Source of the DNA: a virus
Lineage: Duplodnaviria; Heunggongvirae; Uroviricota; Caudoviricetes
Strand: one strand, 5' to 3'
Virus record (IMG/VR): IMGVR_UViG_2698536372_000033
Length of the DNA: 41,555 bases
This document shows positions 10,267 through 40,733 of the stretch, in pieces. The position numbers were made by a program, and so were the translations under genes. A model generated the notes under the pieces. It saw only the letters and a program-made list of their open reading frames with translations, did not search any database and had not been told where the DNA came from. Position 1 is the first letter of the stretch. Every line of letters starts with the position of its first letter.

Positions 10267-10291
10267 CGGGGCATAAATTTTTTATGCCCCG
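10267..10291 (-). terminator. Stem-loop downstream of portal gene (possible terminator; putative cos region lies in 9867-10317 by synteny)
   Basis: CGGGGCATAAA-TTT-TTTATGCCCCG perfect inverted repeat 27 bp after Q stop on the minus strand. Confidence 0.4.
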
Positions 10292-17943: not shown

Positions 17944-18085
17944 CCAACCCACATGGGGAAACCTCGGAATATGGGGCGACCGCCTTCTGGATGCACTGGA
18001 AACCTGTAACGCGGATAAACGGGCCATTGCTGAACTGGATAAGAGAATAGCCGAACTGACACACCAGACGGGAGTAACACAATGA
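17804..18085 (+). CDS. o-spanin lipoprotein (Rz1 / LysC-like), partly overlapping i-spanin in another frame
   Basis: MNAPTLCLTLVLLTGCAG signal with lipobox LLTGC; proline-rich mature part. Confidence 0.55.
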   Translation: MNAPTLCLTLVLLTGCAGTQNAPRPAPSVRLIPQTLTMPVTPPPFPDQPTWGNLGIWGDRLLDALETCNADKRAIAELDKRIAELTHQTGVTQ

Positions 18086-19959
18086 CCAGTAAGAACTTTG
18101 CACTGATTACAGCCATGACACAGGCTGAACTGACTCAAAAGGTGAATGAACATCTTGCGAAAGGGTGGCATCTTCAGGGGGAGACGCGGGTTGCCTACGA
18201 ACCCGGCACCCCGTGGTATCTAATGCAGGCAATGGTGGCCGATGGCACTACAGACATCTCACCTGATTCCCCCCAGCACGGCAGCGTGCCGGAGTGGTAT
18301 TACGTGGTGGTACTTGCTGGTCAATCCAATGCCATGTCATATGGTGAGGGAATGCCGCTGCCGGATTCTTACGATGCGCCCCACCCACGCATTAAGCAAC
18401 TGGCCCGTCGCAACACAGTGACTCCCGGTGGTAAAGCATGCGCATTTAACGACATCATTCCGGCAGATCACTGCCTGCATGATGTTCAGGATATGAGCGT
18501 ACTGAATCACCCGAATGCAGACCTGAGCAAAGGGCAGTATGGCTGTGTCGGACAGGGCTTGCATATTGCCAAACGCCTGTTGCCTTACATTCCACAGAAT
18601 GCCGGGATTTTACTGGTTCCATGCTGTCGTGGTGGTTCGGCATTCACCCAGGGCGCGGAGGGGACATTCAGCGAGTCCACAGGAGCCAGTCAGGATTCGG
18701 CTCGCTGGGGTGTGGGTAAACCTTTATATCAGGACCTGATTTTGCGCACGAAGGCCGCATTGCAGAAAAACCCAAAAAACATGCTGCTGGCCGTATGCTG
18801 GATGCAGGGCGAATTTGACATGAGCGCCGCTACGTACTCACAGCAACCTCCGCTGTTTGCGGCCATGCTGAAACAGTTTCGTGCGGACATTACCGAGTTT
18901 AACACGCAGTGTCATGGAGGCAGAGCGGCAAGTGTGCCATGGATTTGTGGTGACACGACGTATTACTGGAAAAACACCTACGGCACGCAGTACGACACCA
19001 TTTACGGGGCGTACAAAAACAGGGAGAGCGACAACGTTTTCTTTGTGCCATTCCTGACCGATGGTAGTGGCAACAATACCTCCACCAACGCACCAACGGA
19101 AGATCCGGATGCTGCAAGTGAGGGATATTACGGTTCGGCATCCCGAACGAACAAAAACTGGGTATCATCAAATCGCCAGACGCATTTCAGTTCATGGGCG
19201 CGCAGGAGCATTATTCCGGATCGTATGGCAACCGCTATTCTGAACGTAGCCGGTCGCACCTTAGCCTTCATCAGTGGTAAGGCACCGGAAATCAAACCCT
19301 CGCCCGGCGGCAACACGCCATCGGGTCCGTCTGCAGATACGTCCGTTCGCACAATCTCCCTGCTGCCGGCAGCCGGAGAGGCTGCTGCGCAGGGCTGGAG
19401 CATTAAGGATGGCGGAATTCAGTTGTCAGATGGTGTATTTAAGATCACCAAGCAGAGCAATAAAACCTGGTCCCTGACGCATCCGGTGGATGACGCAATT
19501 ACCCTGCTGACACAGGGCGGCAGACTGACCTGTAAGTTCCGCCTGTCAGGCGCACTGACCAACAATCAGTTCGGTCTGGGAATTTATCTGTATACCGATG
19601 TAGCGTTACCTGACGTCGTGGCGATGACCGGGACTGGTAACCCGTTCCTGATGTCGTTCTTCACCCAGACCACAGACGGCAAACTGAATCTGATGCATCA
19701 CAAGAAAGCAGGAAACACAAAGTTGGGCGAGTTCGGGAATTACAGTAACGACTGGCAGACGCTGGAGCTGGTGTTCACCGCCAGCAGTGCCACGGTTACT
19801 CCGAAACTGAATGGAGTGGCTGGCCCGGCATTCCAGGTCATAAAAGACAGTCTGACACTGGGGCTGAATGCACTGACGCTGACGGATATTACCAAAAATG
19901 CAACGTATGGCGTTGAGATAGAAAGTCTGGTGCTGGAAATAAATAGTCCTGCAGCGTAA
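18082..19959 (+). CDS. Prophage NanS-p-like carbohydrate esterase (SGNH/sialate O-acetylesterase family) with C-terminal beta-rich putative carbohydrate-binding domain
   Basis: 625 aa; small N-terminal domain ALITAMTQAELTQKVNEHLAKGWHLQGE, then VVVLAGQSNAMSYGEG (GQSN motif of SASA-type esterases); sits after the lysis cassette as NanS-p genes do in lambdoid prophages. Confidence 0.7.
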   Translation: MTSKNFALITAMTQAELTQKVNEHLAKGWHLQGETRVAYEPGTPWYLMQAMVADGTTDISPDSPQHGSVPEWYYVVVLAGQSNAMSYGEGMPLPDSYDAPHPRIKQLARRNTVTPGGKACAFNDIIPADHCLHDVQDMSVLNHPNADLSKGQYGCVGQGLHIAKRLLPYIPQNAGILLVPCCRGGSAFTQGAEGTFSESTGASQDSARWGVGKPLYQDLILRTKAALQKNPKNMLLAVCWMQGEFDMSAATYSQQPPLFAAMLKQFRADITEFNTQCHGGRAASVPWICGDTTYYWKNTYGTQYDTIYGAYKNRESDNVFFVPFLTDGSGNNTSTNAPTEDPDAASEGYYGSASRTNKNWVSSNRQTHFSSWARRSIIPDRMATAILNVAGRTLAFISGKAPEIKPSPGGNTPSGPSADTSVRTISLLPAAGEAAAQGWSIKDGGIQLSDGVFKITKQSNKTWSLTHPVDDAITLLTQGGRLTCKFRLSGALTNNQFGLGIYLYTDVALPDVVAMTGTGNPFLMSFFTQTTDGKLNLMHHKKAGNTKLGEFGNYSNDWQTLELVFTASSATVTPKLNGVAGPAFQVIKDSLTLGLNALTLTDITKNATYGVEIESLVLEINSPAA

Positions 19960-21656: not shown

Positions 21657-22003
21657 CAACCCGCTACACAGGAATGAACCCGGACGGAACGGGAAACCTG
21701 AACGATATGGAGCATCTGAAACAGTCAGTCAGGGACATCCTGACCACCCCGCTGGCAAGCCGGGTTATGCGACGGGAATATGGCAGCCTTGTGCCCGATT
21801 TAATTGACGAACCCATGAATAACACCACTCGTCTGCAATGCATGAGTGCTGCCGTGATTGCGCTGACACGATGGGAACCCCGCATTGCCCTGGACGCCAT
21901 CGACGTTGTCTGGAAGGCAGGAGGCCGCGCCGGGGTGACGCTGTCGGGCACTGTCATGCAGACCATGCAGAATGTTGAATTAACCATCACGCTGAGGGAG
22001 TAA
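21653..22003 (+). CDS. W: Baseplate wedge protein (P2 gpW-like, GPW/gp25 family)
   Basis: 116 aa (P2 W 115 aa); synteny. Confidence 0.85.
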   Translation: MTTRYTGMNPDGTGNLNDMEHLKQSVRDILTTPLASRVMRREYGSLVPDLIDEPMNNTTRLQCMSAAVIALTRWEPRIALDAIDVVWKAGGRAGVTLSGTVMQTMQNVELTITLRE

Positions 22004-22006
22004 ATC

Positions 22007-22903
22007 ATGCCTGCCGTTGACCTTTCCCAGTTACCGGAACCCGCCATCATCGCGGAGCCTGACTTTGAGGCAATTCTGGCTGACACAAAGGCCATGATGA
22101 TTGCGTCCTATCCTGCCGAACAGCGTGAAGCCGTCTCCGCCGCGCTGGAGCTGGAATCGGAACCCCTGAACGTTATCGCCCAGACAACAGCGTTTCGTGA
22201 AATGCTGTTACGCCAGCGGGTCAATGAGGGGGCACGCGCCTGCATGTTAAGCCACAGCGCCGGGACAGACCTGGACAACCTCGCGGGCAATATGAACACA
22301 AAGCGCCTGACCATCACTCCGGCAACGGATACCACCGACGCAGTGATGGAAAGTGACACCTCGCTGAGACTGCGGGCGCAGCGGGCGTACGATGGCCTGA
22401 GTGTTGCTGGCCCGTCAGGTGCATACGAGTATTTTGCCCGCAGCGCCAGCGGTCTGGTGCGTGATGCGCGGGCTATCAGTCCGTCTCCGGCAAATGTGAC
22501 GGTTTCCATCCTGTCCACTGAAGGCGACGGCACAGCAACGGAGGCGTTGCTTAATACCGTTCGCGCCGTTCTGAATGCAGAGGATACCCGCCCGGTGGCC
22601 GACCGCCTGACGGTACAGAGCGCCAGAATCGTGACATGGCGGCTGAATGCAAAACTGTACTTTTACCCCGGCCCGGAATCCGAACCTATTCTGGCGGCGG
22701 CTGAATCGTCGTTCAGGAAGTGGCTGGCTGAGCAGGGGCTTATCGGTCAGGACGTGGCGTTGTCCGCCATTGCTGCCGCACTGCATGTGCACGGTGTGCA
22801 ACGCGTGGAGATAATCGAACCCACACAGAATATGGCCATCAGCGACATACAGGCGGCGCGCTGTGAGTCGTTCACCATCAGCGAAGGTGGGCGCAATGAG
22901 TAA
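22007..22903 (+). CDS. J: Baseplate wedge protein (P2 gpJ-like)
   Basis: 298 aa (P2 J 302 aa); synteny. Confidence 0.85.
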   Translation: MPAVDLSQLPEPAIIAEPDFEAILADTKAMMIASYPAEQREAVSAALELESEPLNVIAQTTAFREMLLRQRVNEGARACMLSHSAGTDLDNLAGNMNTKRLTITPATDTTDAVMESDTSLRLRAQRAYDGLSVAGPSGAYEYFARSASGLVRDARAISPSPANVTVSILSTEGDGTATEALLNTVRAVLNAEDTRPVADRLTVQSARIVTWRLNAKLYFYPGPESEPILAAAESSFRKWLAEQGLIGQDVALSAIAAALHVHGVQRVEIIEPTQNMAISDIQAARCESFTISEGGRNE

Positions 22904-23426
22904 TTCACTGTTACCACCATCAGCCAGCAGTTTCATGCGTTGTGCCGAAGCTGTCGGAACGCGCATTACAGACATCCCGGTAGACCTCAACACGCTGTGG
23001 TCGCCGGACACCTGCCCGGTGCACCTGCTGCCTTATCTCGCCTGGGCATTTTCCGTTGACCGCTGGGATCGCAACTGGCCGGAAGAGACAAAACGACAGG
23101 TGATTCGTGATGCATGGCTGATACACCGACACAAAGGGACCATCAGCGCACTGCGCAGGGCCATTGAGCCGCTGGGATACCTCATTCGCGTGTCTGAGTG
23201 GTGGGAGTTCGGCGGAGAACCGGGAACATTTACCGTTGAAGTCGGCACACTGGACAGTGGCGTGACGGAGGAAATGTATCTGGAAATGGAGCGGTTGATT
23301 GCTGATGCCCGTCCGGTCAGCCGCCACATGACAGGGCTGAATATCATTCAGGAAATTCCGGGGGATATTTTTGCAGCGGCGGCAACTCATGACGGTGAAG
23401 TTATTACCATTTATCCGGACGATTAA
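22896..23426 (+). CDS. I: Baseplate protein (P2 gpI-like)
   Basis: ATG 22896 overlapping J stop gives 176 aa, the same length as P2 I. Confidence 0.8.
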
Positions 23427-23428
23427 GC

Positions 23429-25561
23429 ATGAGTACCACAACACGAAAATTTAAAACCGTTATCACCGATACAGGTGCCAAAAAATTAGCTCAGGCAGCC
23501 GCGCCAGATGGTAAGCCTGTCCGCCTGACTCATATGGCCGTGGGCGACGGTGGCGGCGCGTTGCCCACACCAGACAGTAAGCAGACCCGTCTGGTGCATG
23601 AGGTGTGGCGACACACTGTTAATCGCGTCATCCTGGACGCAACACATCAGAACCGCATTATTGCGGAGCTGGTTATTCCTCCAGAAACGGGCGGATTCTG
23701 GATCCGGGAAATTGGTGTGTTTGATGAGCACGGCGATTTAATCGCGGTGGGCAATACTGCCGAAAGTTACAAGCCAGCCGTTGCCGAAGGGTCCGGACGT
23801 GCACAAACATTTCGCACCATTCTGACCGTATCCAGCACTGCCACTGTGGCGCTTACCGTGGATAACACCATGGTGATGGCCACAGTGGATTACGTGGATA
23901 ACGAACTGAAAGAGCATGAACAGTCACGATGTCACCCGGATGCCTCGCTGACCGCAAAAGGCTTTGTTCAACTCAGTAGCGCCACTAACAGCGATTCTGA
24001 AACGCTGGCTGCAACGCCGAAAGCGGTTAAGGTCGCGTATGATCTTGCTAACGGAAAATATACAGCGCAGGATGCCACAACAGCGCGAAAAGGCCTTGTC
24101 CAGCTTAGTAGTGCAACCAACAGTACATCTGAAACGCTGGCGGCAACATCAAATGCAGTAAAAGCTGCCTATGACAATGCTGAAAAACGTCTGCAGAAAG
24201 CTAAGAATGGTGAGGATATCTCTGATAAAGACACCTTTACAAAAAATATCGGTGCCTGCCGTGCATATAGTGCAGAGCTGAATATTGGTGGAGATAGTGA
24301 AGCATGGACAACTGCGCAGTTGATTTTTTGGCTAGAGAGTCAGGGGGCATTTAACCATCCTTACTGGATGTGCAAAGGCTCATGGGCTTATGCAAATAAT
24401 AAGGTCATTACAGATACAGGTTGCGGAAGTATTTGTCTTGCAGGTGCTGTTGTGGAAGTTATTGGCACCCGCGGCGCAATGACCATACGCATTACCACAC
24501 CGAGTACATCCAGCGGTGAAGGCATCCCTAATGCTCAATTTACTTATATTAATCATGGTGATGCTTATGCTCCTGGCTGGCGAAGGGACTATAACTCCAG
24601 GAATAAGCCAACAGCATCAGAGATCGGGGCGTTACCGTCAGATGGGACAGCAGTATCGTCAGTTAATCTGGCTTCAAAAGGTCGGCTGACCGCCCTGACA
24701 GATAATATGCAGGGGGCCACAGGTCTGGAGTTATACGAGGCGTATAACAACGGATATCCAACAACGTATGGAAATATCATTCACCTGAAAGGGATGACAG
24801 CCGTTGGCGAAGGCGAATTACTCATCGGCTGGAGTGGTATAAGCGGTGCTCATGCTCCGGCATTTATTCGTTCACGACGGGATACGCCCGACGCAAACTG
24901 GTCGCCGTGGGCGCAGCTTTACACCTCGGCTCATCCTCCTGAAGAGTTTTATCCAGTCGGTGCACCGATTCCGTGGCCATCAGATACCGTTCCGTCTGGT
25001 TATGCCCTGATGCAGGGGCAGACTTTTGACAAATCTGCATACCCGAAACTTGCAGTCGCTTATCCGTCAGGCGTTATTCCTGATATGCGTGGCTGGACGA
25101 TTAAGGGCAAGCCCGGCAGTGGTCGTGCCGTATTGTCTCAGGAACAGGACGGCATTAAATCGCACACCCACAGCGCCAGCGCATCCAGTACGGATTTGGG
25201 GACGAAAACCACATCGTCGTTTGATTACGGTACTAAAACGACCAGTTCATTTGATTACGGCACAAAAACTACGAATAGCGCTGGAAATCATTCACACAAT
25301 ATACCTGTTGGTCACACTGGCGCGGGGAATGGTGTATCAGCCGGTTATAACGCTGCGTTAGGTACTGGTACCACGTCGAGCGCAGGCGAGCATGCTCACA
25401 ATGTATATATCGGTGCCCATAACCACACTATCGGCATTGGTGCTCATGCCCATTCTGTCATTATTGGTCCCCACGGACACACCATCACCGTTAACGCTAC
25501 GGGTAACGAAGAAAACACCGTAAAAAACATCGCATTTAACTATATTGTGAGGCTTGCATAA
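23429..25561 (+). CDS. H: Tail fibre protein (P2 gpH-like) with His-rich C-terminal tip domain
   Basis: 710 aa; N-terminus [20 protein letters not shown]...MAVGDGGG...HEVWRH...[13 protein letters not shown]...AESYKPA.AEGSGR matches P2 H anchor domain; duplicated [21 protein letters not shown] blocks; C-terminal HxH-rich tip. Confidence 0.9.
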
Positions 25562-25902
25562 TGACATTCAGAATGAGTGAACACTCACGGACCATAAAAA
25601 TTTATAATCTACTGACCGGAACCAATGAGTTTATTGGTGAAGGTGATGCATACATTCCACCTCATACAGGTCTGCCTGCAAACAGTACCGATATTGCCCC
25701 GCCAGATATTCCGGCTGGCTTCGTGGCCGTTTTCAACAGTGATGAGGCATCGTGGCATCTCGTTGAAGACCATCGGGGTAAAACGGTTTATGACGTGGCA
25801 TCAGGGGACTCGTTATTTATTTCTGAACTACGGTGCACCGATTCCGTGGCCATCAGATACCGTTCCGTCTGGTTATGCCCTGATGCAGGGGCAGACTTTT
25901 GA
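25561..25902 (+). pseudogene. Truncated tail fibre assembly chaperone (tfa, copy 1) interrupted by a duplication junction
   Basis: First about 90 codons identical to tfa copies 2-4, then reading frame runs into a second copy of the H 3' region at about 25831. Confidence 0.55.
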
Positions 25903-26434
25903 CAAATCTGCATACCCGAAACTTGCAGTCGCTTATCCGTCAGGCGTTATTCCTGATATGCGTGGCTGGACGATTAAGGGCAAGCCCGGCAGTGGTCGTG
26001 CCGTATTGTCTCAGGAACAGGACGGCATTAAATCGCACACCCACAGCGCCAGCGCATCCAGTACGGATTTGGGGACGAAAACCACATCGTCGTTTGATTA
26101 CGGTACTAAAACGACCAGTTCATTTGATTACGGCACAAAAACTACGAATAGCGCTGGAAATCATTCACACAATATACCTGTTGGTCACACTGGCGCGGGG
26201 AATGGTGTATCAGCCGGTTTTAACGCTGCGTTAGGTACTGGTACCACGTCGAGCGCAGGCGGGCATGCTCACAATGTATATATCGGTGCCCATAACCACA
26301 CTATCGGCATTGGTGCTCATGCCCATTCTGTCATTATTGGTCCCCACGGACACACCATCACCGTTAACGCTACGGGTAACGAAGAAAACACCGTAAAAAA
26401 CATCGCATTTAACTATATTGTGAGGCTTGCATAA
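25833..26434 (+). repeat. Duplicate of H C-terminal tip module (about 600 bp, about 99% identical to 24960-25561) with no start codon of its own
   Basis: Nucleotide repeat read directly; encodes [15 protein letters not shown]...NYIVRLA with only two substitutions (Y to F, E to G). Confidence 0.7.
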
Positions 26435-27006
26435 TGACATTCAGAATGAGTGAACAATCACGGACCATAAAAATTTATAATCTACTGGCTGGAACCAATG
26501 AGTTTATTGGTGAAGGTGATGCATACATTCCACCTCATACAGGTCTGCCTGCAAACAGTACCGATATTGCCCCGCCAGATATTCCGGCTGGCTTCGTGGC
26601 CGTTTTCAACAGTGATGAGGCATCGTGGCATCTCGTTGAAGACCATCGGGGAAAAACCGTCTATGACGTGGCTTCCGGCGACGCGTTATTTATTTCTGAA
26701 CTTGGCCCATTACCGGAAAATGTCACCTGGTTATCCCCGGAAGGGGAGTTTCAGAAGTGGAACGGCACAGCCTGGGTGAAAGATGCAGAAGCAGAAAAAC
26801 TGTTCCGGATCCGGAAGGCGGAAGAAACAAAAAACAGCCTGATGCAGATGGCCAGTGAGCATATTGCGCCACTTCAGGATGCCGTAGATTTGGATATTGC
26901 GACGGAGGAAGAGGCATCGTTACTGACTGCATGGAAGACATATCGGGTATTGTTGAATCGTGTTGATACAACAGTAGCATCGGATGTTGAGTGGCCAGAG
27001 TACTAA
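26434..27006 (+). CDS. Tail fibre assembly chaperone (tfa, copy 2, full length)
   Basis: 190 aa; start overlaps tip stop (ATAATG) as for H-G in P2. Confidence 0.75.
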
Positions 27007-27331
27007 AACGACCAGTTCATTTGATTACGGCACAAAAACTACGAATAGCGCTGGAAATCATTCACACAATATACCTGTTGGTCACACTGGCGCGGGGAAT
27101 GGTGTATCAGCCGGTTATAACGCTGCGTTAGGTACTGGTACCACGTCGAGCGCAGGCGAGCATGCTCACAATGTATATATCGGTGCCCATAACCACACTA
27201 TCGGCATTGGTGCTCATGCCCATTCTGTCATTATTGGTCCCCACGGACACACCATCACCGTTAACGCTACGGGTAACGAAGAAAACACCGTAAAAAACAT
27301 CGCATTTAACTATATTGTGAGGCTTGCATAA
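26996..27331 (+). repeat. Third, shorter copy of the H tip module (from AGTACTAAAACGACC onward)
   Basis: Identical to 25237-25561; begins at the same nucleotide as the tip segment fused into gene 30641-32149. Confidence 0.7.
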
Positions 27332-27909
27332 TGACATTCAGAATGAGTGAACACTCACGGACCATAAAAATTTATAATCTACTGACCGGAACCAATGAGT
27401 TTATTGGTGAAGGTGATGCATACATTCCACCTCATACAGGTCTGCCTGCAAACAGTACCGATATTGCCCCGCCAGATATTCCGGCTGGCTTCGTGGCCGT
27501 TTTCAACAGTGATGAGGCATCGTGGAATCTCGTTGAAGACCATCGGGGAAAAACCGTCTATGACGTGGCTTCCGGCGACGCGTTATTTATTTCTGAACTT
27601 GGCCCATTACCGGAAAATGTCACCTGGTTATCCCCGGAAGGGGAGTTTCAGAAGTGGAACGGCACAGCCTGGGTGAAAGATGCAGAAGCAGAAAAACTGT
27701 TCCGGATCCGGAAGGCGGAAGAAACAAAAAACAGCCTGATGCAGATGGCCAGTGAGCATATTGCGCCACTTCAGGATGCCGTAGATTTGGATATTGCGAC
27801 GGAGGAAGAGGCATCGTTACTGACTGCATGGAAGACATATCGGGTATTGTTGAATCGTGTTGATACAACAGTAGCATCGGATGTTGAGTGGCCAGTCGCC
27901 CCGCAATAA
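27331..27909 (+). CDS. Tail fibre assembly chaperone (tfa, copy 3, full length)
   Basis: 192 aa; near-identical to copy 2. Confidence 0.75.
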
Positions 27910-27916
27910 AAGGATA

Positions 27917-27944
27917 AAGCCATCGATAGAAATATTGATGGCTT
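27917..27944. terminator. Bidirectional hairpin between convergent tfa and acetyltransferase
   Basis: AAGCCATC-N12-GATGGCTT inverted repeat. Confidence 0.45.
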
Positions 27945-27952
27945 CATGTACT

Positions 27953-28525
27953 CTATTTATACAATACAACACCGCTCTTTTTTGTTATATATGTGCAGTT
28001 CGATGGTATATCTTTATTTATAAAAGACATTGCACCTATTTTTACATTATCCCCAATTTTACGTGATAATCCAATGATGCAACAATTAGCTCCGATATCA
28101 ACGTTACTACCAATTTTTACTCTTGAACCAGGCATGTCACCATCTACCTGTCCAATGGTAGTATTCTGTCGCAAAACCAGATTTTCACCAGCATCAACAG
28201 CAAAATGAACAACAATTCCAGTATGATGGGGAATTGTTAAACCTTTTCCAATATTTGCGCCCAATCCAATTTCGCAACCAAATCTGTTAATTATATTATT
28301 GTTTAACTTTCTGGCTGCTTTCTTATGTAATTTATTGCCATTAATATACATTTCATTAGCCAGTCTCCACCAGAAAAGGAAATTCCGATTGCGCTGCTTC
28401 TTCTCTCTTAATAGTCGCCAAACATCCATTTTTTCACGCCTGATGATTTCAGCCATCCAATAGCTCAATAGAGCTTTTGAATTCCCGAAGATGACAAAGT
28501 GAATAGCTATTAAGTAACATAACAT
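27953..28525 (-). CDS. Hexapeptide-repeat acyltransferase, serine O-acetyltransferase (CysE)-like, copy 1
   Basis: 190 aa; GANIGKGLTIPHHTGIVVHFAVDAGENLVL...IGSNVDIGANCCIIG...IGDNVKIGAMSFI matches left-handed beta-helix hexapeptide repeats and the CysE-type GxxIxH region; AT-rich. Confidence 0.75.
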   Translation of the reverse strand: MLCYLIAIHFVIFGNSKALLSYWMAEIIRREKMDVWRLLREKKQRNRNFLFWWRLANEMYINGNKLHKKAARKLNNNIINRFGCEIGLGANIGKGLTIPHHTGIVVHFAVDAGENLVLRQNTTIGQVDGDMPGSRVKIGSNVDIGANCCIIGLSRKIGDNVKIGAMSFINKDIPSNCTYITKKSGVVLYK

Positions 28526-28992
28526 ATTGCAACTGCCTATATTTTTGGGTTTCTATGGTTATATATTGACATTATAATTAAAACAATAATCATCAGTGTG
28601 TTACTGCGTTCCTGCTAAACTAAATCAACGCACAATGTAAACACAAATGTTAATTTTAAACTGAGCGCTAAAGGGATGTCAATATTGTATTGATAATGAG
28701 TTGCAAGATTGCCAACACTTTCTATATTTTTGGATGTAATAATTTATATTTTATCTATTTAGTGTTTCTTTAGACTTATTAAGGATGTCATTATTAATTT
28801 ATGGCTTGCCATTTCTATACATATCTGTTAAAAATTTTGACTTGTTTGTTGAAAATAGATTTAATTGATTGGTTTATTTTTTACATGACGCTCTTTAATA
28901 TAGCTTCAGGTATATATAAGCACAATGCATTATTTCCAGAGGAAATTAACAAAATTGTTAGCTCTTATTTGTTGAGCTTATAGATATTAATT

Positions 28993-29012
28993 AAGGCCCG
29001 ATTCCGGGCCTT
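28993..29012. terminator. Hairpin AAGGCCCG-ATTC-CGGGCCTT with flanking T/A runs (bidirectional terminator-like)
   Basis: Read directly; at the end of the 490-bp AT-rich spacer. Confidence 0.45.
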
Positions 29013-29280
29013 TCCTCATTCCGGCTTTTCGGGAAACGTTACTGGAAGGATGGAGGTATCCGTGGATTCGACTTTCTGCGCATAGAGAATCCACTCGGTT
29101 AATTTTTGTTTACCCTGAACGGAAATAATGCCTAGCCGTAACTGTGAGTCCCAGAGCTGAGTTTTATCCCTGACGAGCTGTAGCAGGCTTTGCTTTTCTT
29201 TTTCCGCTTGTTGTCTTTGCATGACCGGTTGAGAAGTTACTTTGCATACCATTACCTCCTGACAACGTAGGAGGGAACTT

Positions 29281-29610
29281 GTGCTTGACACACAGGAATT
29301 AGCTCCAGTTGCTATTGCGCTCCTGCTTTCAGTAATTGGTGGGATAGGCACGTTCCTGATGGATGTCCGAGACGGTCGCCAGTCTGGCAATTTGTTGGGA
29401 TTGGTTACGGAGATCTTTGTTGCAGTGACAGCTGGCGCGGTGGCGTACCTATTGGGGCAACACGAGGGCTGGGAGTTATCAATTACGTACTTAATGGTAA
29501 CGATAGCCAGCAATAACGGTCATGAGGTGATTTCAGGGATGAAACGAGTGAATATCGATAGCATTCTGAATGTTCTTACAAGTTTGGTGAAAAAGGGAGG
29601 TGGGAAATGA
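29281..29610 (+). CDS. Small two-helix membrane protein (holin-like topology), gene 1 of novel operon
   Basis: 109 aa; GTG start 5 nt after TAGGAGGG; hydrophobic helices LAPVAIALLLSVIGGIGTFLM and IFVAVTAGAVAYLLG; basic C-terminal tail. Confidence 0.5.
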   Translation: MLDTQELAPVAIALLLSVIGGIGTFLMDVRDGRQSGNLLGLVTEIFVAVTAGAVAYLLGQHEGWELSITYLMVTIASNNGHEVISGMKRVNIDSILNVLTSLVKKGGGK

Positions 29611-30050
29611 TTGGCTGGGGTGTATGCGCTCTTGCGTTAGCCTTAGCCGATCGCTATTTGCTAAAACGCAAGGACATCACGCATTTAGAACTTGGTGATG
29701 TGGAAATTAAACCGGGTTTCATCCGGGTGCCGTTCAAATACCGGTCTAAATTCCCGTTTTTGCGCGGCGCAACGGTCAGATATTGGATCCGCGATGTTCA
29801 GAAGCCAACGACAGTGATTGAAGGCGAACAACGTTGTCTGACGTCGGCTGAACAGGGCGAAAACAGTGAATGGTTGTACATACCCACTGAATATATGGGT
29901 AAAGGAGAACGGCTGTGGCATTTCAACGTCATGGTTACGCATGGCGACTCGTTCATTAACCCGTTGTATCGGATTTTCCCTGTTACTCAGCAAATCCGCA
30001 GAAGTTACGTAATAAATCTCGCACAGGATGTGTCAGATGACGAAAAATAA
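29607..30050 (+). CDS. N-terminally membrane-anchored protein of unknown function, gene 2 of novel operon
   Basis: 147 aa; start overlaps previous stop (ATGA); N-terminal hydrophobic MIGWGVCALALALA. Confidence 0.5.
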   Translation: MIGWGVCALALALADRYLLKRKDITHLELGDVEIKPGFIRVPFKYRSKFPFLRGATVRYWIRDVQKPTTVIEGEQRCLTSAEQGENSEWLYIPTEYMGKGERLWHFNVMVTHGDSFINPLYRIFPVTQQIRRSYVINLAQDVSDDEK

Positions 30051-30639
30051 GTATGCAACGGTCGATTTTGACCAGGTTAATGAAAAGGGGCTGAAATCCC
30101 TTATCGCGGCGATCAATAAAACCGGTGTTACGGTAATTGAGGTTGACTCCAGCAACCGCGCAACAACGAAAGATGGCGTTAAAGTTAAAACCGCAAAGCT
30201 GGTTCTTAACGACGGACAAATTCTTGCCATACAGGTAAACGATACTGGCGATATATCGTCTGTGAGGCTGAATGGAAAAGCTATTCCTAACGCTCAGTCG
30301 CCGGATATCAAGACGCTTGGTACCGTCATGGGGCAAGCGGCCCGCAAAAACTCCGCAAAATTCCAGAAATCACTGATCGCCAAAGCGAAACGTGTTGCCA
30401 ATCCGGTAGACAAGAAACCGGCAGTAAAATCCAACTTTCAGCGCCTGCAAGAGGCAAAACAGCGGAATGCTCAGGTGGTTGCCGCTTATAAATCAGCGCA
30501 GAACTCGGTGTCTTTCAATCAACAGCAGATCACTGATTTGCGGGCGAAGCTGGATAAGGAGACAGGCCGACTCAATAACGAAAAGGCCCGAAATGGCGAA
30601 CTCAAACGCCGTCTTAAGCAACTGAAAGCAGGAAATTAA
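30028..30639 (+). CDS. Coiled-coil protein of unknown function, gene 3 of novel operon
   Basis: 203 aa; overlaps gene 2 by 23 nt; contains motif KNSAKFQ then basic/coiled-coil tail; a 23-nt stretch is near-identical to one in gene 4. Confidence 0.5.
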
Positions 30640-30640
30640 C

Positions 30641-32149
30641 ATGGAACAGTTCAATATCAATAAAGGGGTGACGATCAAGCCTGGGCTTGACGTGCTTCCC
30701 CCGCCAGTGACTGATGATGAATATCGCGCATTAATGGCCGGTGAGGACCGCTATCTGATGACGGAATCCAACACCCTGGAGGAAATCGAGGCTACGTTCT
30801 TCTATGACACGCCGATCCACTGGTGTGCTACGGATTTACTGGAGGCGATTAGTTCTACTCGTTTGCAGCTACACCGGACCATGCAGGCATTTGTCCGGGC
30901 ATTGAACCAGAAGCTGAATGGTACCGGAATCTCTGCGGGGAGTGATAAAACGGGGGACGTGGCCCAGAACGGTGCACGCGCGATCGGCGGGGCTGAAATT
31001 GGCCGGGCACGTAACGTTAACGGGCTGCCGGTCCTGCCAGCCATTATTCCGCTCAGTGATGGTCAGACTATCAGCATTCTGTTTCATAGCCCGACAGCGG
31101 AAAACCGGATCACCAATAGCGATACGCTGATTGCTTTCCAGTTCTTACTGAATAAAAAAGACGTTACTCATACCGTTGCTCCGATGAGTGGACGTGATAT
31201 GACGCTGGCGCAGGTCACCATGAAACTTGCCAACCTTGCAGAGAAAAACTCGGCAAAATTCCAGCGTGCGCAGAAGAAGAAAAAAGCCCTGGTTGATGAA
31301 ATAACCCAACTACAGGCTGACAGTGACCAGAAAGAGGATGCCATGAGCGACCTCGCGGATCAGGTGGCAGCGGTAGAAGGGCAGAAGGTAGATCTGGAGC
31401 AGAAAATTAACGCTGTTGCATCGGAAGCGGATTCTCTTTATGAAGAGAATGAGCGTTTGCAGACGGAGATTGATCAGCTCAATCGAACTGGTGGGCGCGA
31501 AACCATTGCTCCTGCGGGGATGACTGGTAGACACTCTCGCGCGATGACGGATCGCCTTGCAAGTATCAAAAATCGTATGCATATGAACGGGGAAGTGACG
31601 CTCAGTAATGGTGCATCAATGAAGCAATTCATTGAGGACGGTGAAGGGTATATCCAGTTAACCGATTCGGATGGCAGCGTGTACATGATCAAGGCTAAAT
31701 CCATACAGGGTGTGGACATGGCAGATGCGATCGGCAAGCTGTTTAAAGCCTATAAAGCGGGTAATGTATCGGAATATCTGGTCCAACCAGAAGAACATAA
31801 ACCGGAAAACGTCGAAAGTACTAAAACGACCAGTTCATTTGATTACGGCACAAAAACTACGAATAGCGCTGGAAATCATTCACACAATATACCTGTTGGT
31901 CACACTGGCGCGGGGAATGGTGTATCAGCCGGTTATAACGCTGCGTTAGGTACTGGTACCACGTCGAGCGCAGGCGAGCATGCTCACAATGTATATATCG
32001 GTGCCCATAACCACACTATCGGCATTGGTGCTCATGCCCATTCTGTCATTATTGGTCCCCACGGACACACCATCACCGTTAACGCTACGGGTAACGAAGA
32101 AAACACCGTAAAAAACATCGCATTTAACTATATTGTGAGGCTTGCATAA
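30641..32149 (+). CDS. Chimeric protein: novel 390-aa N-terminal region (with coiled-coil) fused to the tail-fibre His-rich tip module, gene 4 of novel operon
   Basis: 502 aa; start 2 nt after gene 3 stop; last 115 aa ([10 protein letters not shown]...NYIVRLA) identical to the H tip from the AGTACTAAAACG breakpoint; followed by a tfa copy. Confidence 0.6.
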
Positions 32150-32728
32150 TGACATTCAGAATGAGTGAACACTCACGGACCATAAAAATTTATAATCTAC
32201 TGACCGGAACCAATGAGTTTATTGGTGAAGGTGATGCATACATTCCACCTCATACAGGTCTGCCTGCAAACAGTACCGATATTGCCCCGCCAGATATTCC
32301 GGCTGGCTTCGTGGCCGTTTTCAACAGTGATGAGGCATCGTGGCATCTCGTTGAAGACCATCGGGGTAAAACGGTTTATGACGTGGCATCAGGGGACTCG
32401 TTATTTATTTCTGAACTCGGTCCATTACCGGAAAATGTTACCTGGTTGTCGCCGTATGGAGAGTATCAGAAGTGGAACGGCACATCCTGGGTGAAAGATG
32501 CAGAAGCAGAAAAACTGTTTCGGATAAGGGAGGCGGAAGAAACAAAAAAACAGCCTGATGCAGGTAGCCAGCGAGCATATTGCGCCACTTCAGGATGCCG
32601 TAGATTTGGATATTGCAACGGAGGAAGAGGCATCGTTACTGGCTGCATGGAAGACATACCGGGTATTGTTGAATCGTGTTAATACAGCGGTAGCAGCGGA
32701 TGTTGAGTGGCCAGTCGCCCCACAATAA
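32149..32728 (+). pseudogene. Tail fibre assembly chaperone (tfa, copy 4) with +1 frameshift in an A7 run
   Basis: A7 at about 32550-32556 versus A6 in copies 2 and 3; ORF terminates early at 32682 while the shifted frame continues to the normal stop at 32726-32728. Confidence 0.55.
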
Positions 32729-32734
32729 AGAGAA

Positions 32735-32764
32735 AAAGCCATCGATTGAAATATAGATGGCTTT
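32735..32764. terminator. Bidirectional hairpin between convergent tfa copy 4 and acetyltransferase copy 2
   Basis: AAAGCCATC-N12-GATGGCTTT inverted repeat, paralogous to 27917-27944. Confidence 0.45.
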
Positions 32765-32771
32765 ATGTACT

Positions 32772-33377
32772 CTATTTATACAATACAACACCGCTCTTTT
32801 TAGTTATATATGTGCAGTTCGATGGTATATCTTTATTTATAAAAGACATTGCACCTATTTTTACATTATCCCCAATTTTACGTGATAATCCAATGATGCA
32901 ACAATTAGCTCCGATATCAACGTTACTACCAATTTTTACTCTTGAACCAGGCATGTCACCATCTATCTGTCCAATGGTAGTATTCTGTCGTAACACCAGA
33001 TTTTCACCAGCATCAACAGCAAAATGAACAACAATTCCAGCATGATGGGGAATTGTTAACCCTTTTCCAATATTTGCGCCCAATCCAATTTCACAACCAA
33101 ATTTGTTAATTATTTTACTGTTTAACTTTTTGGCTGCTTTCTTATGTAATTTATTACCATTAATATACATTTCGTTAGCCAACCGCCACCAGAAAAGGAA
33201 ATTCCGGTTACGCTGTTTTTTCTCTCTTAAAAGCCTCCAGATATCCATACGTTTCCGCCGAATTACTTCATATTTCCAGAAGTTTTTTAAATTAGTAGAG
33301 TCCCCAAATAAAACAAAGTGAATTGCCATTAAGTAAGACAGCACGATAATCTCCTTAATTATTATTTCAGACCACAC
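32772..33377 (-). CDS. Hexapeptide-repeat acyltransferase, serine O-acetyltransferase (CysE)-like, copy 2
   Basis: 201 aa; same architecture as copy 1 but clearly diverged in sequence (many substitutions), unlike the near-identical fibre-tip copies. Confidence 0.75.
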   Translation of the reverse strand: MWSEIIIKEIIVLSYLMAIHFVLFGDSTNLKNFWKYEVIRRKRMDIWRLLREKKQRNRNFLFWWRLANEMYINGNKLHKKAAKKLNSKIINKFGCEIGLGANIGKGLTIPHHAGIVVHFAVDAGENLVLRQNTTIGQIDGDMPGSRVKIGSNVDIGANCCIIGLSRKIGDNVKIGAMSFINKDIPSNCTYITKKSGVVLYK

Positions 33378-33500
33378 ATATTATAAGGTTAAGAGATTAT
33401 AAAATCCTGTTGTTTGTTATTCAAAAACAATTTTCTGAGAAGGACATACAACAGCAAGTCGCCAGTCACCTTCATCAGGAAATTGGCGACATACGTTAAA

Positions 33501-33995
33501 TCAGAGCAGCCCCTTAACTGAGCTGGTCGCGCTATTAAGGGATGATGTCACCTTATCTTTGAAGCCGGACAACATATCGCTGAACGATGAGGATTGCAGG
33601 CGCTCCCGCAAATCCTCATCACAGCGTTCAAGAGTCAGTGAAAATTCTATCTTTTTCGACTTACCGTAGCGATCAAACTCGGAGCGGGTCGTATTCGTTT
33701 CGGTCAGGACATACATGCCGTAAATCTGCCCGACGCCATCAATCAGAGGCCAGGGCCGTCCTGTATACGCCTGCGTGGTCAGCAGAGACAGCGACACTTC
33801 GCCACCTGTAATTTCAGGATAAAGCACACCAGAAAGAACGATGCGATCATCACCTGCACCGATATACTGCCAGCTTGCTGAACGGTTAACGCGTTCATTT
33901 TTCACATGCCGCCAGCTTTTGTTTTGCTGTAACTGCTGATGCGGCAGCGTGCGCAGCTCAAAAACAAACATGCCATAGATCATCATCATGGCCAT
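33501..33995 (-). CDS. U: Tail protein (P2 gpU-like)
   Basis: 164 aa (P2 U 159 aa); immediately downstream of tape measure gene on the minus strand. Confidence 0.8.
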   Translation of the reverse strand: MAMMMIYGMFVFELRTLPHQQLQQNKSWRHVKNERVNRSASWQYIGAGDDRIVLSGVLYPEITGGEVSLSLLTTQAYTGRPWPLIDGVGQIYGMYVLTETNTTRSEFDRYGKSKKIEFSLTLERCDEDLRERLQSSSFSDMLSGFKDKVTSSLNSATSSVKGLL

Positions 33996-34001
33996 GACTC
34001 C

Positions 34002-36845
34002 TCAATCTTTATCGTAAAAACTGCCACGCCCGGCACGGGCGCGCCGTTCCATTTCTGCCCTGACCATTTCACCGACCAGTTTCGCCAGTTCGCGGGGATT
34101 CTGCGTAACAACGTTATGCAGATGAACATGAATTTCACCGCCAAATCTGGAGACAGCAGGCTCCCGATTACGGGAAGCTGCAGGAACTGATGCCACTGGC
34201 GATCGTATGGCCTCCGCCACCGGGCGGGAGCTGGCCGCAACAACAGGGACCAGCGCCGGAGGCAGCGGAGCCGGGACTACGGGTGTGATATTAATTGCGG
34301 GGGCAGGCTTACTGACCTGCGCAATCTTCCGCTCCTGCCACTCCCCACGAACAGCAAGTGCGCGGGGCAGGTTCTTAAAGACAATATCGCCAGGGCCAAT
34401 GCGTTTTTTCGTCTCATCAACCAGCTTACCTGTGTTATCAGCAATTTTGCTGAGTCTGCGTAGCGTCCCGGTATTGCTGTCTGTGAGCGGTTTGTTGTCT
34501 TTGGGTTTATCACCTCCGGTGCCATTGCCATTTTCCACAGGCTTCGGCGGATTGATTTTCGCCAGGTCCCCCTGAAGTAAGGCAACCTTATCCTGAAGAA
34601 TGGCCGCACGCTGTGCGTCTTCGATTTTCTTGCGCGCCCTTTCCGCTTCATCCGGAAGGACGCCAAGTTTTTCAAGTATCCACGCCAGCGTATCCAGTAG
34701 CATTTTTGCAGGTGTCAGAACAAGTTGTAACGCACCGCCAAGAACGTTACCGAATATCTCGCCAGCACTGGTACATTTATCCAACGTTTCCTTGCTGGAC
34801 TCCATCGGTGACAGCAGCGATTTAAACCAGTTAAACACCTGGCTGATCCCGCTTCCGATTGCGTCAAAAACAGGGCCAAACCGTTCAAAGGTTTCACGCA
34901 ACGGGTTCAGCCTTTCCATAATCCCGCTGAACACCCCGGCAAAAAATGCCCTGATGGGATCCCAGTATTTCCAGATAAGGACGGCAGCTCCGGCAAGCGC
35001 AGCCACGATAAGACCAACCGGACTGAACAGCGCCCCGATAGCGCCTCCCAGTAAAGAAACGGAACCCGTCACCATTCCCCATAGTGCTGGCAGGACCCTG
35101 ACAGCATTCATTGATCCGGTCAGGAGAGAAAAACCAAGACGCAGTTTTGCCAGCGGACCAGCAAGCACACCAATAGCCAGCGACAACGAGCCAACCGTTG
35201 CAGTCATTGCCAGCAACGCACCGCCTGCTATCAGTAGCTGGCGCGTCAGTGCCGGATGGGCCTGCGCCAGCGCCGTCACCCTTGATACCACCCGCGTGAG
35301 CCACTGCGTGACAGAACGCAGCGGACCGTCAATCAGATCTGCAATGCGGATGCGCAACCCTTCCCATGCACTGCCGAGTGATTTCAGATCGCCGTCAAGG
35401 TTGTTGGCCATAACCTTTGCTGTGCGTTCAGCCTCACCGCGCGCGCCTTCAAGTTCTTTTCTCAGTTTGGGTAAGGAACCGTCACCCACTGCATCAACGA
35501 GCGCCATAAACGATGTGAAAGCCTCTTCTCCGGCAATGTCCTTAAAGAACGATACCCGGTCAACTTCCCCGTATTTGCGGGTGGCTTTATAAAGGTCGGC
35601 CAGCACATCCTCCATCGGGCGCATTTTACCCCCGGCATCCGAGACGGACACGCCCAGCTCTTTCAGAGCTTCTGCCGCCGCCTTTGGCGGTGATGCCAGA
35701 CGAGCCAGGCTGGCACGCATTGCCGTCCCGGCATCACTCCCTCTGATGCCCATATTCGCCAGCACACCAGCCATCGCTGCGGCCTGCTCCAGCGATATTC
35801 CCAGCTTACCCGCCACCGGACCTGCATATTTCATGGTTTCGCCCAGTGCGCGAAGGTCAGTGTTGGTACGGGTAAACGCTGCGGTGAGTGTGTCACCGAC
35901 CCGGTCCATCTGGTCAGCAGAAAGGCCGAACTGCGTCAGGATATTTGAGCCAATATCTGCCGTCTCGCCGAGATCCATACCGCCAGCCGTTGCCATGCTC
36001 AGCACTCCGGGAAGCGCAGCCTGAATGGCCTGCGGTGTGAAGCCTGCCATTGCAAGAAATGCCTGCCCACTGGCGGCATCGCCTGCGGTGAACTGCGTTT
36101 CAGAGCCAAGTTTTAACGCCTGCTCACGCAGCGCCTTAAACTGCGGGCTGTTCTGGTCGATTCGCGTCAGCGCCTGAACGCGGGACATCTCTTTGCCGAA
36201 CCCGATCGCGGGCTGCAAAAAACGCCCGGCAGCATAGCCGCCCGCCGCTGCCGCACCAATTGCCAGCGCACCACCTGTTTTCAGTTTTCCCGCGGTTTCC
36301 TGCGCGCGCGAATACCACTTACGCGCCCGCGTTACACGCGCAAGCGCCTGCCGTTCGCGTTCAAGCTGGTTGTTGTACTGTTCGGTGCGTCTGATGGCCT
36401 GCTGGATGGTGTTATCGCTGCCTGTCAGGGAAATGCCGTGGCGTTTCAGCTCTCCGCCAAGCTCCCGCATTTTCTGAATTTCCCGTGTGCGCGATTCATT
36501 CAGGCGTTCAAGCCGGGTGCTTAACTGCTGCATCAGCTTTTGTTGTTTTTCGCTGAGCACTGTACCCGTGCGTTGTAACTGATTAAGGGCGTTAAGCTGG
36601 CGTCGTGCTTTCACGATACCCGCATCCGCTTTACTGACAGCGTCGCGGGCGCGCTCAAATGAACGAGCCTGACGCTCGAGATTTTTAATCGCCCCCTGCG
36701 TTCGCTGGATGGAGTCACCAAACTGCCCCATCAGGCGGCGGGCGTTTTCGGCAGGCCGGGTCAGCCTGTCAACGGCGCTGAAAGCGACCCGGATATCAAG
36801 AGTCTTCATTGTCTGCATTCCCGCTGCGAAGTGCCGCCCGCTCAC
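34002..36845 (-). CDS. T: Tail tape measure protein (P2 gpT-like)
   Basis: 947 aa; long helical N-terminal half, Gly/Ala-rich hydrophobic central segments; follows E/E'. Confidence 0.85.
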   Translation of the reverse strand: MSGRHFAAGMQTMKTLDIRVAFSAVDRLTRPAENARRLMGQFGDSIQRTQGAIKNLERQARSFERARDAVSKADAGIVKARRQLNALNQLQRTGTVLSEKQQKLMQQLSTRLERLNESRTREIQKMRELGGELKRHGISLTGSDNTIQQAIRRTEQYNNQLERERQALARVTRARKWYSRAQETAGKLKTGGALAIGAAAAGGYAAGRFLQPAIGFGKEMSRVQALTRIDQNSPQFKALREQALKLGSETQFTAGDAASGQAFLAMAGFTPQAIQAALPGVLSMATAGGMDLGETADIGSNILTQFGLSADQMDRVGDTLTAAFTRTNTDLRALGETMKYAGPVAGKLGISLEQAAAMAGVLANMGIRGSDAGTAMRASLARLASPPKAAAEALKELGVSVSDAGGKMRPMEDVLADLYKATRKYGEVDRVSFFKDIAGEEAFTSFMALVDAVGDGSLPKLRKELEGARGEAERTAKVMANNLDGDLKSLGSAWEGLRIRIADLIDGPLRSVTQWLTRVVSRVTALAQAHPALTRQLLIAGGALLAMTATVGSLSLAIGVLAGPLAKLRLGFSLLTGSMNAVRVLPALWGMVTGSVSLLGGAIGALFSPVGLIVAALAGAAVLIWKYWDPIRAFFAGVFSGIMERLNPLRETFERFGPVFDAIGSGISQVFNWFKSLLSPMESSKETLDKCTSAGEIFGNVLGGALQLVLTPAKMLLDTLAWILEKLGVLPDEAERARKKIEDAQRAAILQDKVALLQGDLAKINPPKPVENGNGTGGDKPKDNKPLTDSNTGTLRRLSKIADNTGKLVDETKKRIGPGDIVFKNLPRALAVRGEWQERKIAQVSKPAPAINITPVVPAPLPPALVPVVAASSRPVAEAIRSPVASVPAASRNREPAVSRFGGEIHVHLHNVVTQNPRELAKLVGEMVRAEMERRARAGRGSFYDKD

Positions 36846-37325
36846 GCCAGCTAACCACTTCGCCGGGCGTCATCATGAAGATTTCGGCGGGCGACCAGTT
36901 AAAAATAACGGCAATATCTGCCACAAAGTCTTCTATGTGCTCAAAGCACACAACCGTGATCAGGCTTCCGTCGCCTGTTCGTTCTTCCCGCCAGAGTCCG
37001 CACCGCTCAAAAAATTTACGGCAACCACACATAACTGAATAAAGTCACGGGATGCCATTTTTTTGATCGTCACTTCATCCAGTCGCGGTGATGTCACGCG
37101 TGACAGCAGCGTAAACATGGATTCCGCTTTCAGATTCAGCACATCAGACAGCGACAAATCTCGCAGAGATCCAGCCTGCTCAATAGCCCCGGTGATCTCC
37201 ACATACGTGATTTTTTCGCCGCCTCGCTCAATTGGTTGGGTAAGTTTTACACCACGCTCACTGGTTTCTTTCACAGTGTCAGCAACTACCGTGTTTTCGG
37301 TATCGATGTTTTTCGTCTCTTTCAT
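36796..37325 (-). CDS. E: Tail assembly chaperones E and E' (E' made by programmed -1 frameshift)
   Basis: E ORF 36960-37325; slippery heptamer T-TTT-TTG on minus strand (plus coords 37008-37014) links to the -1 frame ORF ending at 36796. Confidence 0.8.
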
Positions 37326-37379
37326 CAGGAAACTCCTTTCAGTCAGAGGCGACGCACTGCGCCGCCTGCATATTACTTA

Positions 37380-37892
37380 TCAGCCAAGCCCGAGCGCGGA
37401 ACGGATGCGATCGGGCACAATGTCCTTGCCGTCCTTCCGGTAAATGAAGTTCAGCAGGTCAATCTCCCACAACGGGCGATCGTTAACACTCAGCTTGTAG
37501 TAGGTGTTTTTAATGGCGTAAGTGTGTGATGTGGCTTCGCCCTGTTTGGCTTCCCCCATATCAATTTCCGTCACACGTCCGCGCATTTCGACTTCATACA
37601 GGTCGCTTTCTGCATCGGTGTAATATTCACCCGCAAAACGCAGCAGCGTGCCGTCAATCGTGCCGCCATACTTAAGGAACAGCTCACGAACTGCGCCCCC
37701 CATGACAAAGCTCGCATCAAGCGCGGAGTCGTCCAGACCGAGATCAATACTTACCGCACCCATCATGCCACCACCCCGGTAGCTGTCGGTTTTGCGCGTC
37801 AGCTTAGGCAGAGTGACGGACGTCACCTTACCCACTTCGTTTTCACCATCCACAAACAGCGTAAAAAAGCGAAGATGTTTTGGTACAGCCAT
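37380..37892 (-). CDS. FII: Tail tube protein (P2 gpFII-like)
   Basis: 170 aa (P2 FII 172 aa); synteny downstream of sheath. Confidence 0.85.
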   Translation of the reverse strand: MAVPKHLRFFTLFVDGENEVGKVTSVTLPKLTRKTDSYRGGGMMGAVSIDLGLDDSALDASFVMGGAVRELFLKYGGTIDGTLLRFAGEYYTDAESDLYEVEMRGRVTEIDMGEAKQGEATSHTYAIKNTYYKLSVNDRPLWEIDLLNFIYRKDGKDIVPDRIRSALGLG

Positions 37893-39076: not shown

Positions 39077-39233
39077 AGCTTCAGCCCCTTGTATCCGTTA
39101 AATGATTCGGCAACAATCATCACCCACCACGCGCGTAATCTCACCCCTGCGCCGTTCTCCCGCCACGGCGACAACAAAAAGCAGTAACCCCCTATGCACG
39201 CACATGCGACCATGCCGCACAGGGAGGGAACAG
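39077..39233. promoter_or_regulatory. Divergent intergenic region between inverted sheath operon and gene D (must contain promoters for both)
   Basis: Inferred from gene orientation only. Confidence 0.35.
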
Positions 39234-40334: not shown

Positions 40335-40733
40335 GCAAATTAGATGTATTGACTCAAACCAGAACTGACACACTCACAGCACAGTGCCAGACCCAATCTG
40401 GCAGCCCGCTTTGTGCCTAGAGCAGGTGTTGCTTATGTAACAGTTAATCCACGGATAGTGGTCATGAATGCTGGTTGAAGTTGTATTGCCATGAGTGGTC
40501 AATTAGGGACTCACTTATTATCGCGTGCTCACCATTGATGGGTAAGATCATGCATTTCGGCTACTGTACTTCGCGAATCCTCCGCACACAGGCAACACCT
40601 GATTTAAGAACAGAGGGAGATGATGACGCAAGGAAGATTTATTATCGTGCATGTGGCAGATGATCTTTTAGCTGCCGGAGTGATAAATTACACCTATTTT
40701 CGATAAGTGTTTTTGTTATAGAACATTAATTTC

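Follow-up and report, generated by a model that had tools for sequence, protein, structure and literature searches.

Is the H tail-fibre gene of this prophage followed by a genuine tandem array of fibre-tip and tfa cassettes, or was the array made during assembly? The question arises from a sequence of 41,555 nucleotides assigned to a virus of the Caudoviricetes (IMG/VR record IMGVR_UViG_2698536372_000033), referred to below as the window, which means the whole stretch of DNA analysed at its full length. The preliminary description of the window noted several copies of the H tip and tfa in series, took them as the outcome of recent unequal recombination and possibly as a reservoir of cassettes for host-range switching, and kept an assembly artefact as a fallback.

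As a description of the letters in the window, the repeats are confirmed and lie far beyond chance. Self-BLAST and a repeat search detected direct repeats between 24958-25829 and 25831-26702 (98.6%, 872 nt), between 26103-26998 and 27000-27895 (99.3%, 896 nt) and between 25230-25829 and 27000-27599 (98.7%), so that the identity of about 99% first given for the copies agrees with the 98.6-99.3% measured among the first three. These three copies occupy 24958-25829, 25831-26998 and 27000-28429. All copies are in direct orientation, and no inverted repeat (0) was found within 22000-30500. The layout as first described is incomplete, and a fourth copy at 31818-33248, which had been overlooked, is to be added. 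This copy consists of the tip, tfa and the 5' part of an acetyltransferase gene, and is 95.5% identical to 26999-28429 by self-BLAST, while its first 600 nt are identical to 25230-25829 (100%, 0 mismatches).

The open reading frames also agree with the serial arrangement of tip and tfa copies, including a second tip without its own start codon and a third, shorter tip. Besides the domains of the H protein listed in Table 1, the Pfam matches in the locus were Caudo_TAP for tfa, a hexapeptide acetyltransferase, LydA, LydB and two DarA_N proteins. The tfa said to be cut at about codon 90 is indeed seen as an ORF, but it is a product of the first join, at which an N of the original record is written as A (see below). 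Two full tfa genes had been reported after the second and the third tip: the latter stands, whereas the former is 4 codons short and has 2 altered final residues. In the 502-aa ORF the N-terminal 392 residues of DarA appear to be in frame with a fibre tip. The DarA-tip fusion, the codon-90 tfa and the 190-aa tfa are all products of joins at which N was turned into A.

Table 1. Joins, constituent pieces and open reading frames of the fibre-tip and tfa region, with positions in the window.
Feature	Position	Strand	Remarks
Piece a	up to 25829	+	chromosome L002: 1 mismatch and one 1-nt gap in 2835 nt
End of piece a	24958-25829	+	chromosomal tip and first 269 nt of tfa; right-hand contig end
Scaffold gap 1	25830		N in record (position 10270 of compared segment), A in window
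Piece b	25831-26998	+	1168-nt contig; plasmid L001 6009-7176, 99.4%
Scaffold gap 2	26999		N in record (position 11439 of compared segment), A in window
Piece c	27000-31816	+	4817-nt contig; plasmid L001 6281-11097, one piece, 99.7%
Scaffold gap 3	31817		N in record (position 16257 of compared segment), A in window
Piece d	31818 onward	+	chromosome L002 2826-5507, 0 mismatches, one 1-nt gap
H tail-fibre ORF	23429-25561	+	Pfam Phage_tail_fib, Phage_fiber_2, Collar
Truncated tfa ORF	25561-25902	+	113 aa, across first join
Second tfa ORF	26434-27006	+	190 aa, 4 codons below the 192-aa form
Third tfa ORF	27331-27909	+	
DarA-tip fusion ORF	30641-32149	+	502 aa, spurious; in frame through third join
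Fourth tfa ORF	32149-32682	+	177 aa, A7 frameshift

The region was split by BLAST against two references, the chromosome of strain 20.1 (L002) and a P1-like plasmid of Shiga toxin-producing E. coli, STEC (L001). It falls into four collinear pieces, a to d, with one base between neighbours (Table 1). Piece b carries the whole tip and tfa without its last 4 codons, and its best matches are P1-like plasmids (99.5%). Piece c carries the distal tip, tfa, the acetyltransferase gene (- strand), a U' remnant (- strand), lydA, lydB, hdf and darA up to its nucleotide 1176; it is also collinear at 99.7% with other STEC P1-like plasmids and stops in the middle of darA. Piece d begins, over the span of the fourth copy, with the distal tip, tfa and a fragment of the acetyltransferase gene, and runs on through gpU into the remainder of the prophage. 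Piece a ends with the same 600 nt with which piece d begins (0 mismatches), and a and d merged at this overlap give the layout of the reference chromosome apart from one 1-nt indel. Pieces c and d start at the same position of the tip (unit position 273).

The bases between the pieces were then followed back to the public record, CYEF01000013.1 (132,309 bp), of the draft assembly GCA_001283205.2. Over the span compared base by base, window 15561-35902 (20,342 bases), the two sequences align with no gaps and with three differences, each an N in the record and an A in the window, and the gene layout of the record is the same as that of the window. Since 25830, 26999 and 31817 are N in the record, each repeat junction is a scaffold gap of a single N. 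These three positions coincide with the breakpoints that had been located beforehand, and independently, by BLAST against the reference chromosome and plasmid, and the A at each of the three joins is templated by neither partner. The window is thus CYEF01000013.1 with N rendered as A, and the copies are joined by no determined sequence. A single N means that a join is unsequenced and does not by itself show that the pieces are not adjacent. An exact look-up of six ORFs related to the junctions in a collection of 15 billion proteins found two of the six, the 113-aa ORF over the first join (CTX53303.1, encoded on CYEF01000013.1) and the 177-aa frameshifted tfa. The 113-aa protein can be matched exactly because the first join sits in a CTN codon, which is Leu for any base, while the proteins over the other joins remain unmatched because the translations of the record carry X there. 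A literature search found no papers citing the assembly accession GCA_001283205.2. When undetermined bases are shown as A, scaffold gaps pass for junctions and fusion ORFs appear; for sequence from draft assemblies, the original record should be searched for Ns before repeat structures are read.

Several origins of the junction sequences had been considered and were set aside. Ligation of dA-tailed fragments or cloning joins at ScaI sites (AGTACT, as read at J3 and J5) is moot, the A being a placeholder, and so is microhomology-mediated template switching, for which J2 has CGGT on both partners, possibly by chance. A natural variant of the tip with one 36-nt repeat unit fewer, which would template AGTACT, was considered while the A was taken as real. 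Crossover sites like cix/gix/hix or the shufflon sfx showed weak resemblance by eye, the breakpoints having no common core, and for cleavage by the type III restriction enzyme EcoP1I no AGACC was seen by eye at the right distance.

How the locus is arranged in related genomes was examined for both the prophage and the plasmid. The two flanks of the region (1-24957 and 33249-41509) each align in one piece, at about 100%, with many STEC chromosomes, including that of O26:H11 strain 11368; the left flank is covered to at least 80% in 212 genomes, and the top matches carry both flanks at about 100%. In the chromosome of strain 20.1, the single reference read through, the flanks are separated by 1702 bp as against 8291 bp in the window, and these 1702 bp hold the tip, a single tfa and, on the - strand, the 5' part of the acetyltransferase gene. 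The prophage is P88-like (Xuanwuvirus, P2-related). The match of phage P88 to 33495-40345 is in one piece (97%), indicating that the U-T-E-FII-FI block on the minus strand, with D and ogr after it, has the normal P88-like layout; no inverted repeats flank the minus-strand U-to-FI block. In STEC P1-like plasmids the order is S fibre, tfa, acetyltransferase (- strand), U' remnant (- strand), lydA, lydB, hdf and darA. Homology to the plasmid S gene begins at 24950 in the window, and the H tip from 24958 is common to the P1-like plasmids. The tip, tfa and part of the acetyltransferase gene thus form a module of 1.7 kb that is about 95% identical between the P88-like prophage and the P1-like plasmids, with sharp borders of homology at 24950 and 33248.

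The comparison with related prophages was extended to 5,426 complete E. coli genomes, none of which carries any of the junctions. The first two joins are present in one piece in 0 of the 5,426, the best matches coming in three pieces, and for the third join none of these genomes covers even 80% of the 441-nt query. The best coverage of the 10-kb region among complete E. coli genomes is 83%, every such match being a plasmid, and P1 DNA within this prophage was found in 0 of the 5,426. These figures bear on the idea that piece c alone was truly integrated by homologous recombination, the remaining duplication being artefact. A single crossover within the 1.7-kb module would place plasmid DNA between two copies of the module, and this resembles the order of module (c), plasmid and module (d) in the window. 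Such a crossover, however, is expected to bring in the whole plasmid of about 95 kb and not 3.4 kb ending in the middle of darA at an N, and the integration is absent from all 5,426 complete genomes, which makes this origin of piece c highly improbable.

The differences between the copies were then assigned to their sources, using the 79 sites at which chromosome and plasmid differ over 1710 nt (the 1702-nt module and 8 nt). Piece a (24958-25829) has the chromosomal allele at all 17 of its informative sites, and piece d is purely chromosomal in the gapped alignment to the reference chromosome. Piece b is a mosaic, with chromosomal alleles at five sites, plasmid alleles at four, a chromosomal allele at one and plasmid alleles at 31, in this order. 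Piece c has four chromosomal alleles followed by plasmid alleles, except for one chromosomal allele at unit position 1380. The differences between copies are therefore almost entirely chromosomal versus plasmid alleles in mosaic patterns. No 100% match to the haplotype of piece b or of piece c exists in the 5,426 complete E. coli genomes.

The array is best explained as a short-read scaffolding artefact and not as a feature of the genome, a reading to which we give a probability of about 95%. The P88-like prophage of the strain shares its 1.7-kb module, about 95% identical, with P1-like phage-plasmids; the strain very probably carries such a phage-plasmid as well, and pieces b and c would come from the plasmid resident in this strain. 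A short-read assembler is unable to resolve such a near-repeat and leaves several contigs with overlapping ends; repeats of this kind, 1.7 kb long and about 95-99% identical between chromosome and plasmid, are apt to be broken up in short-read graphs, with read pairs linking the fragments across. On this reading a scaffolder then used read-pair links to order four contigs, of which a and d are chromosomal, b is mixed and c comes from plasmid DNA; pairs that map across between the chromosomal and plasmid copies would supply these links. Each join was left as a gap and finally reduced to a single N, and with the Ns written as A in the window the joins mimic real junctions and give rise to spurious ORFs. 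Pieces a and d are the two sides of one chromosomal locus, each end having grown into the repeat so far that 600 bases became common to both, and yet they were left unmerged. The true chromosome corresponds to a overlapped with d, in which H and tfa are each present once, together with the fragment of the acetyltransferase gene and gpU. The fallback reading of the preliminary description is thus the one borne out by the Ns at all joins, by the overlap of a and d and by the canonical layout in relatives; more precisely, scaffolding or gap filling set P1-like plasmid contigs and duplicated contig ends within the prophage.

Judging from this pattern and from the style of the accession and annotation, the pipeline was probably of the SSPACE/GapFiller type. 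According to the published description of a widely used pipeline, both programs work greedily and can join contigs falsely, each join being entered as a gap of Ns to be filled in iterative rounds (PMC5320598). GapFiller extends both edges of a gap base by base through k-mer overlap, with a majority vote at ambiguous positions. A gap is closed only if the two edges come to overlap and the insert agrees in length with the size estimated for the gap; those left open lie mainly in repeats (PMC3446322). This procedure would yield mosaic alleles and overlapping, unmerged ends. The window resembles the false joins of such pipelines in its single-N joins, in contig ends that run into the repeat and overlap without being merged, in allele mosaics as from majority-vote k-mer extension, and in a plasmid contig that a shared repeat has drawn into the scaffold of the chromosome. 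The mosaics in b and c fit k-mer extension with majority voting across the near-repeat, and the shared start of c and d may reflect a deterministic extension that stalled at the same k-mer context.

For a real array, the prophage would have had to recombine repeatedly with a P1-like plasmid in the same cell, the junctions being left unassembled. That the scaffolder chose the order a-b-c-d suggests that some linking read pairs existed, the mosaics in b and c might in principle have come from gene conversion between plasmid and chromosome, near-identical copies would in principle also assemble badly, and STEC strains with both a prophage and a P1-like plasmid do exist (EH2252 and 2013C-3252). 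Against this, no continuous sequence runs over any of the junctions, a and d overlap perfectly and restore the canonical locus, and the partners at the junctions are non-homologous (mid-tfa with tip start, tfa end with mid-tip, and mid-darA with mid-tip). Three illegitimate joins would be needed in one isolate, all exactly at unsequenced bases, and neither the array nor an intermediate is present in the 5,426 complete E. coli genomes. We therefore consider a real tandem array very unlikely. A similarly slight chance is left to a scaffold order that records an isolate-specific capture of P1-like DNA with an extra tip and tfa, that is, an intermediate of recombination between phage-plasmid and prophage. 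The proposal of recent unequal recombination finds no footing in a locus without a sequenced junction and without a related genome that has the array.

Cassettes of fibre tip and chaperone gene are what the switching systems of P1, Mu and p15B shuffle. The locus resembles the invertible C segment of P1 with Cin, the G segment of Mu with Gin and the p15B system with Min in the kind of genes concerned (fibre tip and tfa/U chaperone), and it further resembles the P1 segment in that the plasmid piece comes from a P1-like element and has kept the U' remnant. A programmed host-range switch could accordingly be imagined, of the Cin/Gin/Min invertible type, as a shufflon-like store or as the target of a diversity-generating retroelement, and both the type of cassette and the survival of the U' remnant (- strand) in the plasmid piece speak for it. 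Unlike the systems of P1, Mu and p15B, in which an invertase acts on inverted cassettes with defined crossover sites and divergent tips, the copies here are direct and near-identical and no invertase accompanies them. Gene calls and Pfam matches in the locus include no invertase, Rci-type recombinase or reverse transcriptase, and between tfa and lydA the STEC P1-like plasmid has the acetyltransferase gene and the U' remnant and no invertase gene. With the copies direct and the span 22000-30500 free of inverted repeats, with copies 99% identical so that switching would change nothing, with differences that are chromosomal or plasmid alleles and not adenine-directed, and with junctions that are Ns, a programmed switch has hardly any likelihood. 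The suggested cassette reservoir for host-range switching is likewise not supported, the copies being no diversified alternatives but the chromosomal allele twice and plasmid-like alleles twice with no recombinase, and there is no evidence here of either a reservoir or switching.

The real feature under the artefact has been known for long, namely that host-range determinants are exchanged as modules, and nothing in it is new. Horizontal exchange of tail-fibre modules involves H and G of P2, S and U of P1 and of Mu, and stf and tfa of lambda, and the first account of exchange among unrelated phages reportedly concerned P2 and came from Haggård-Ljungquist and colleagues in 1992. As in this known exchange, the P88-like prophage and the P1-like plasmids share the tip, tfa and part of the acetyltransferase gene. 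Lambdoid stf and tfa genes match the module at 88-90%, and hundreds of sequenced STEC genomes contain it.

The real feature at this locus is a module that is common to the P88-like prophage and the P1-like STEC plasmids. It consists of the fibre tip, tfa and a 5' segment of the gene for a hexapeptide (serine) acetyltransferase. The two types of element showed about 95% identity over this module, and the homology ended abruptly at the borders of the module. On the chromosome, the acetyltransferase ORF runs beyond the homology border with a different N-terminus. Within the tail-fibre gene H, two sets of repeats were detected (see table), and the plasmid-type piece c and the chromosomal piece d, the last two of the four segments composing the window, both start immediately after the first 30-nt unit of the repeat in the tip.

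Features of the window
Feature	Position	Strand	Description
Internal repeat in H tip	25170-25260		about 2.5 units of 30 nt, 10 amino acids encoded per unit
Phage_fiber_2 repeats in H	23956-24181		two, 94 nt each, 132 nt apart, 73% identical
Shared module, true locus	24950-25561 plus 31818-33248		counterpart at 6001-7710 of L001 (reference P1-like STEC plasmid)
gpU, tape-measure gene, gpE, tube gene, sheath gene	33501-40334	minus	between tfa and gpD/ogr
625-aa ORF	18082-19959		domains DUF1737, SASA (sialate O-acetylesterase-type) and DUF6645

At positions 25830, 26999 and 31817, where the four segments meet, the public record CYEF01000013.1 carries N, while the window carries A. These A residues seem to be substitutes for undetermined bases, introduced when the window was prepared, and similarly masked scaffold gaps may be present in further windows taken from draft assemblies. 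One consequence is an apparent fusion ORF (30641-32149), in which the N-terminal 392 aa of DarA, including the DarA_N domain, are joined in frame with the final 109 aa of the fibre tip. This ORF owes its existence entirely to the reading of N as A at 31817, and the join of DarA to the tip at this position was found in none of the 5,426 complete E. coli genomes.

The chromosomal tfa (ORF 32149-32682) contains a run of seven A (32544-32550) in contrast to six in the reference genomes, leading to a frameshifted product of 177 aa in place of 192 aa. The identical protein was identified in two further assemblies, AIAG01000084.1 and JAOWNW010000001.1; the A7 run is due to recurrent slippage in the homopolymer or, alternatively, to an error in sequencing.

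Downstream from tfa, the gpU-to-sheath block is aligned in the direction opposite to that of gpD/ogr, which lies on the plus strand, and this arrangement is the reverse of the order in classical P2. One-piece matches to this block occur in phage P88 and in other genomes of Xuanwuvirus, so the minus-strand orientation is the normal layout for the group. The 625-aa ORF, flanked by prophage lysis genes and gpR, has the appearance of a cargo or accessory gene, comparable in type to the NanS-p esterases found in STEC prophages. At the right end, no alignment was obtained between the final 46 bases (41510-41555) and the reference chromosomes matching all of the sequence upstream. As the window ends, by coordinate arithmetic, about 30 bp short of the end of the source contig, these bases may represent the border of a further repeat or mobile element.
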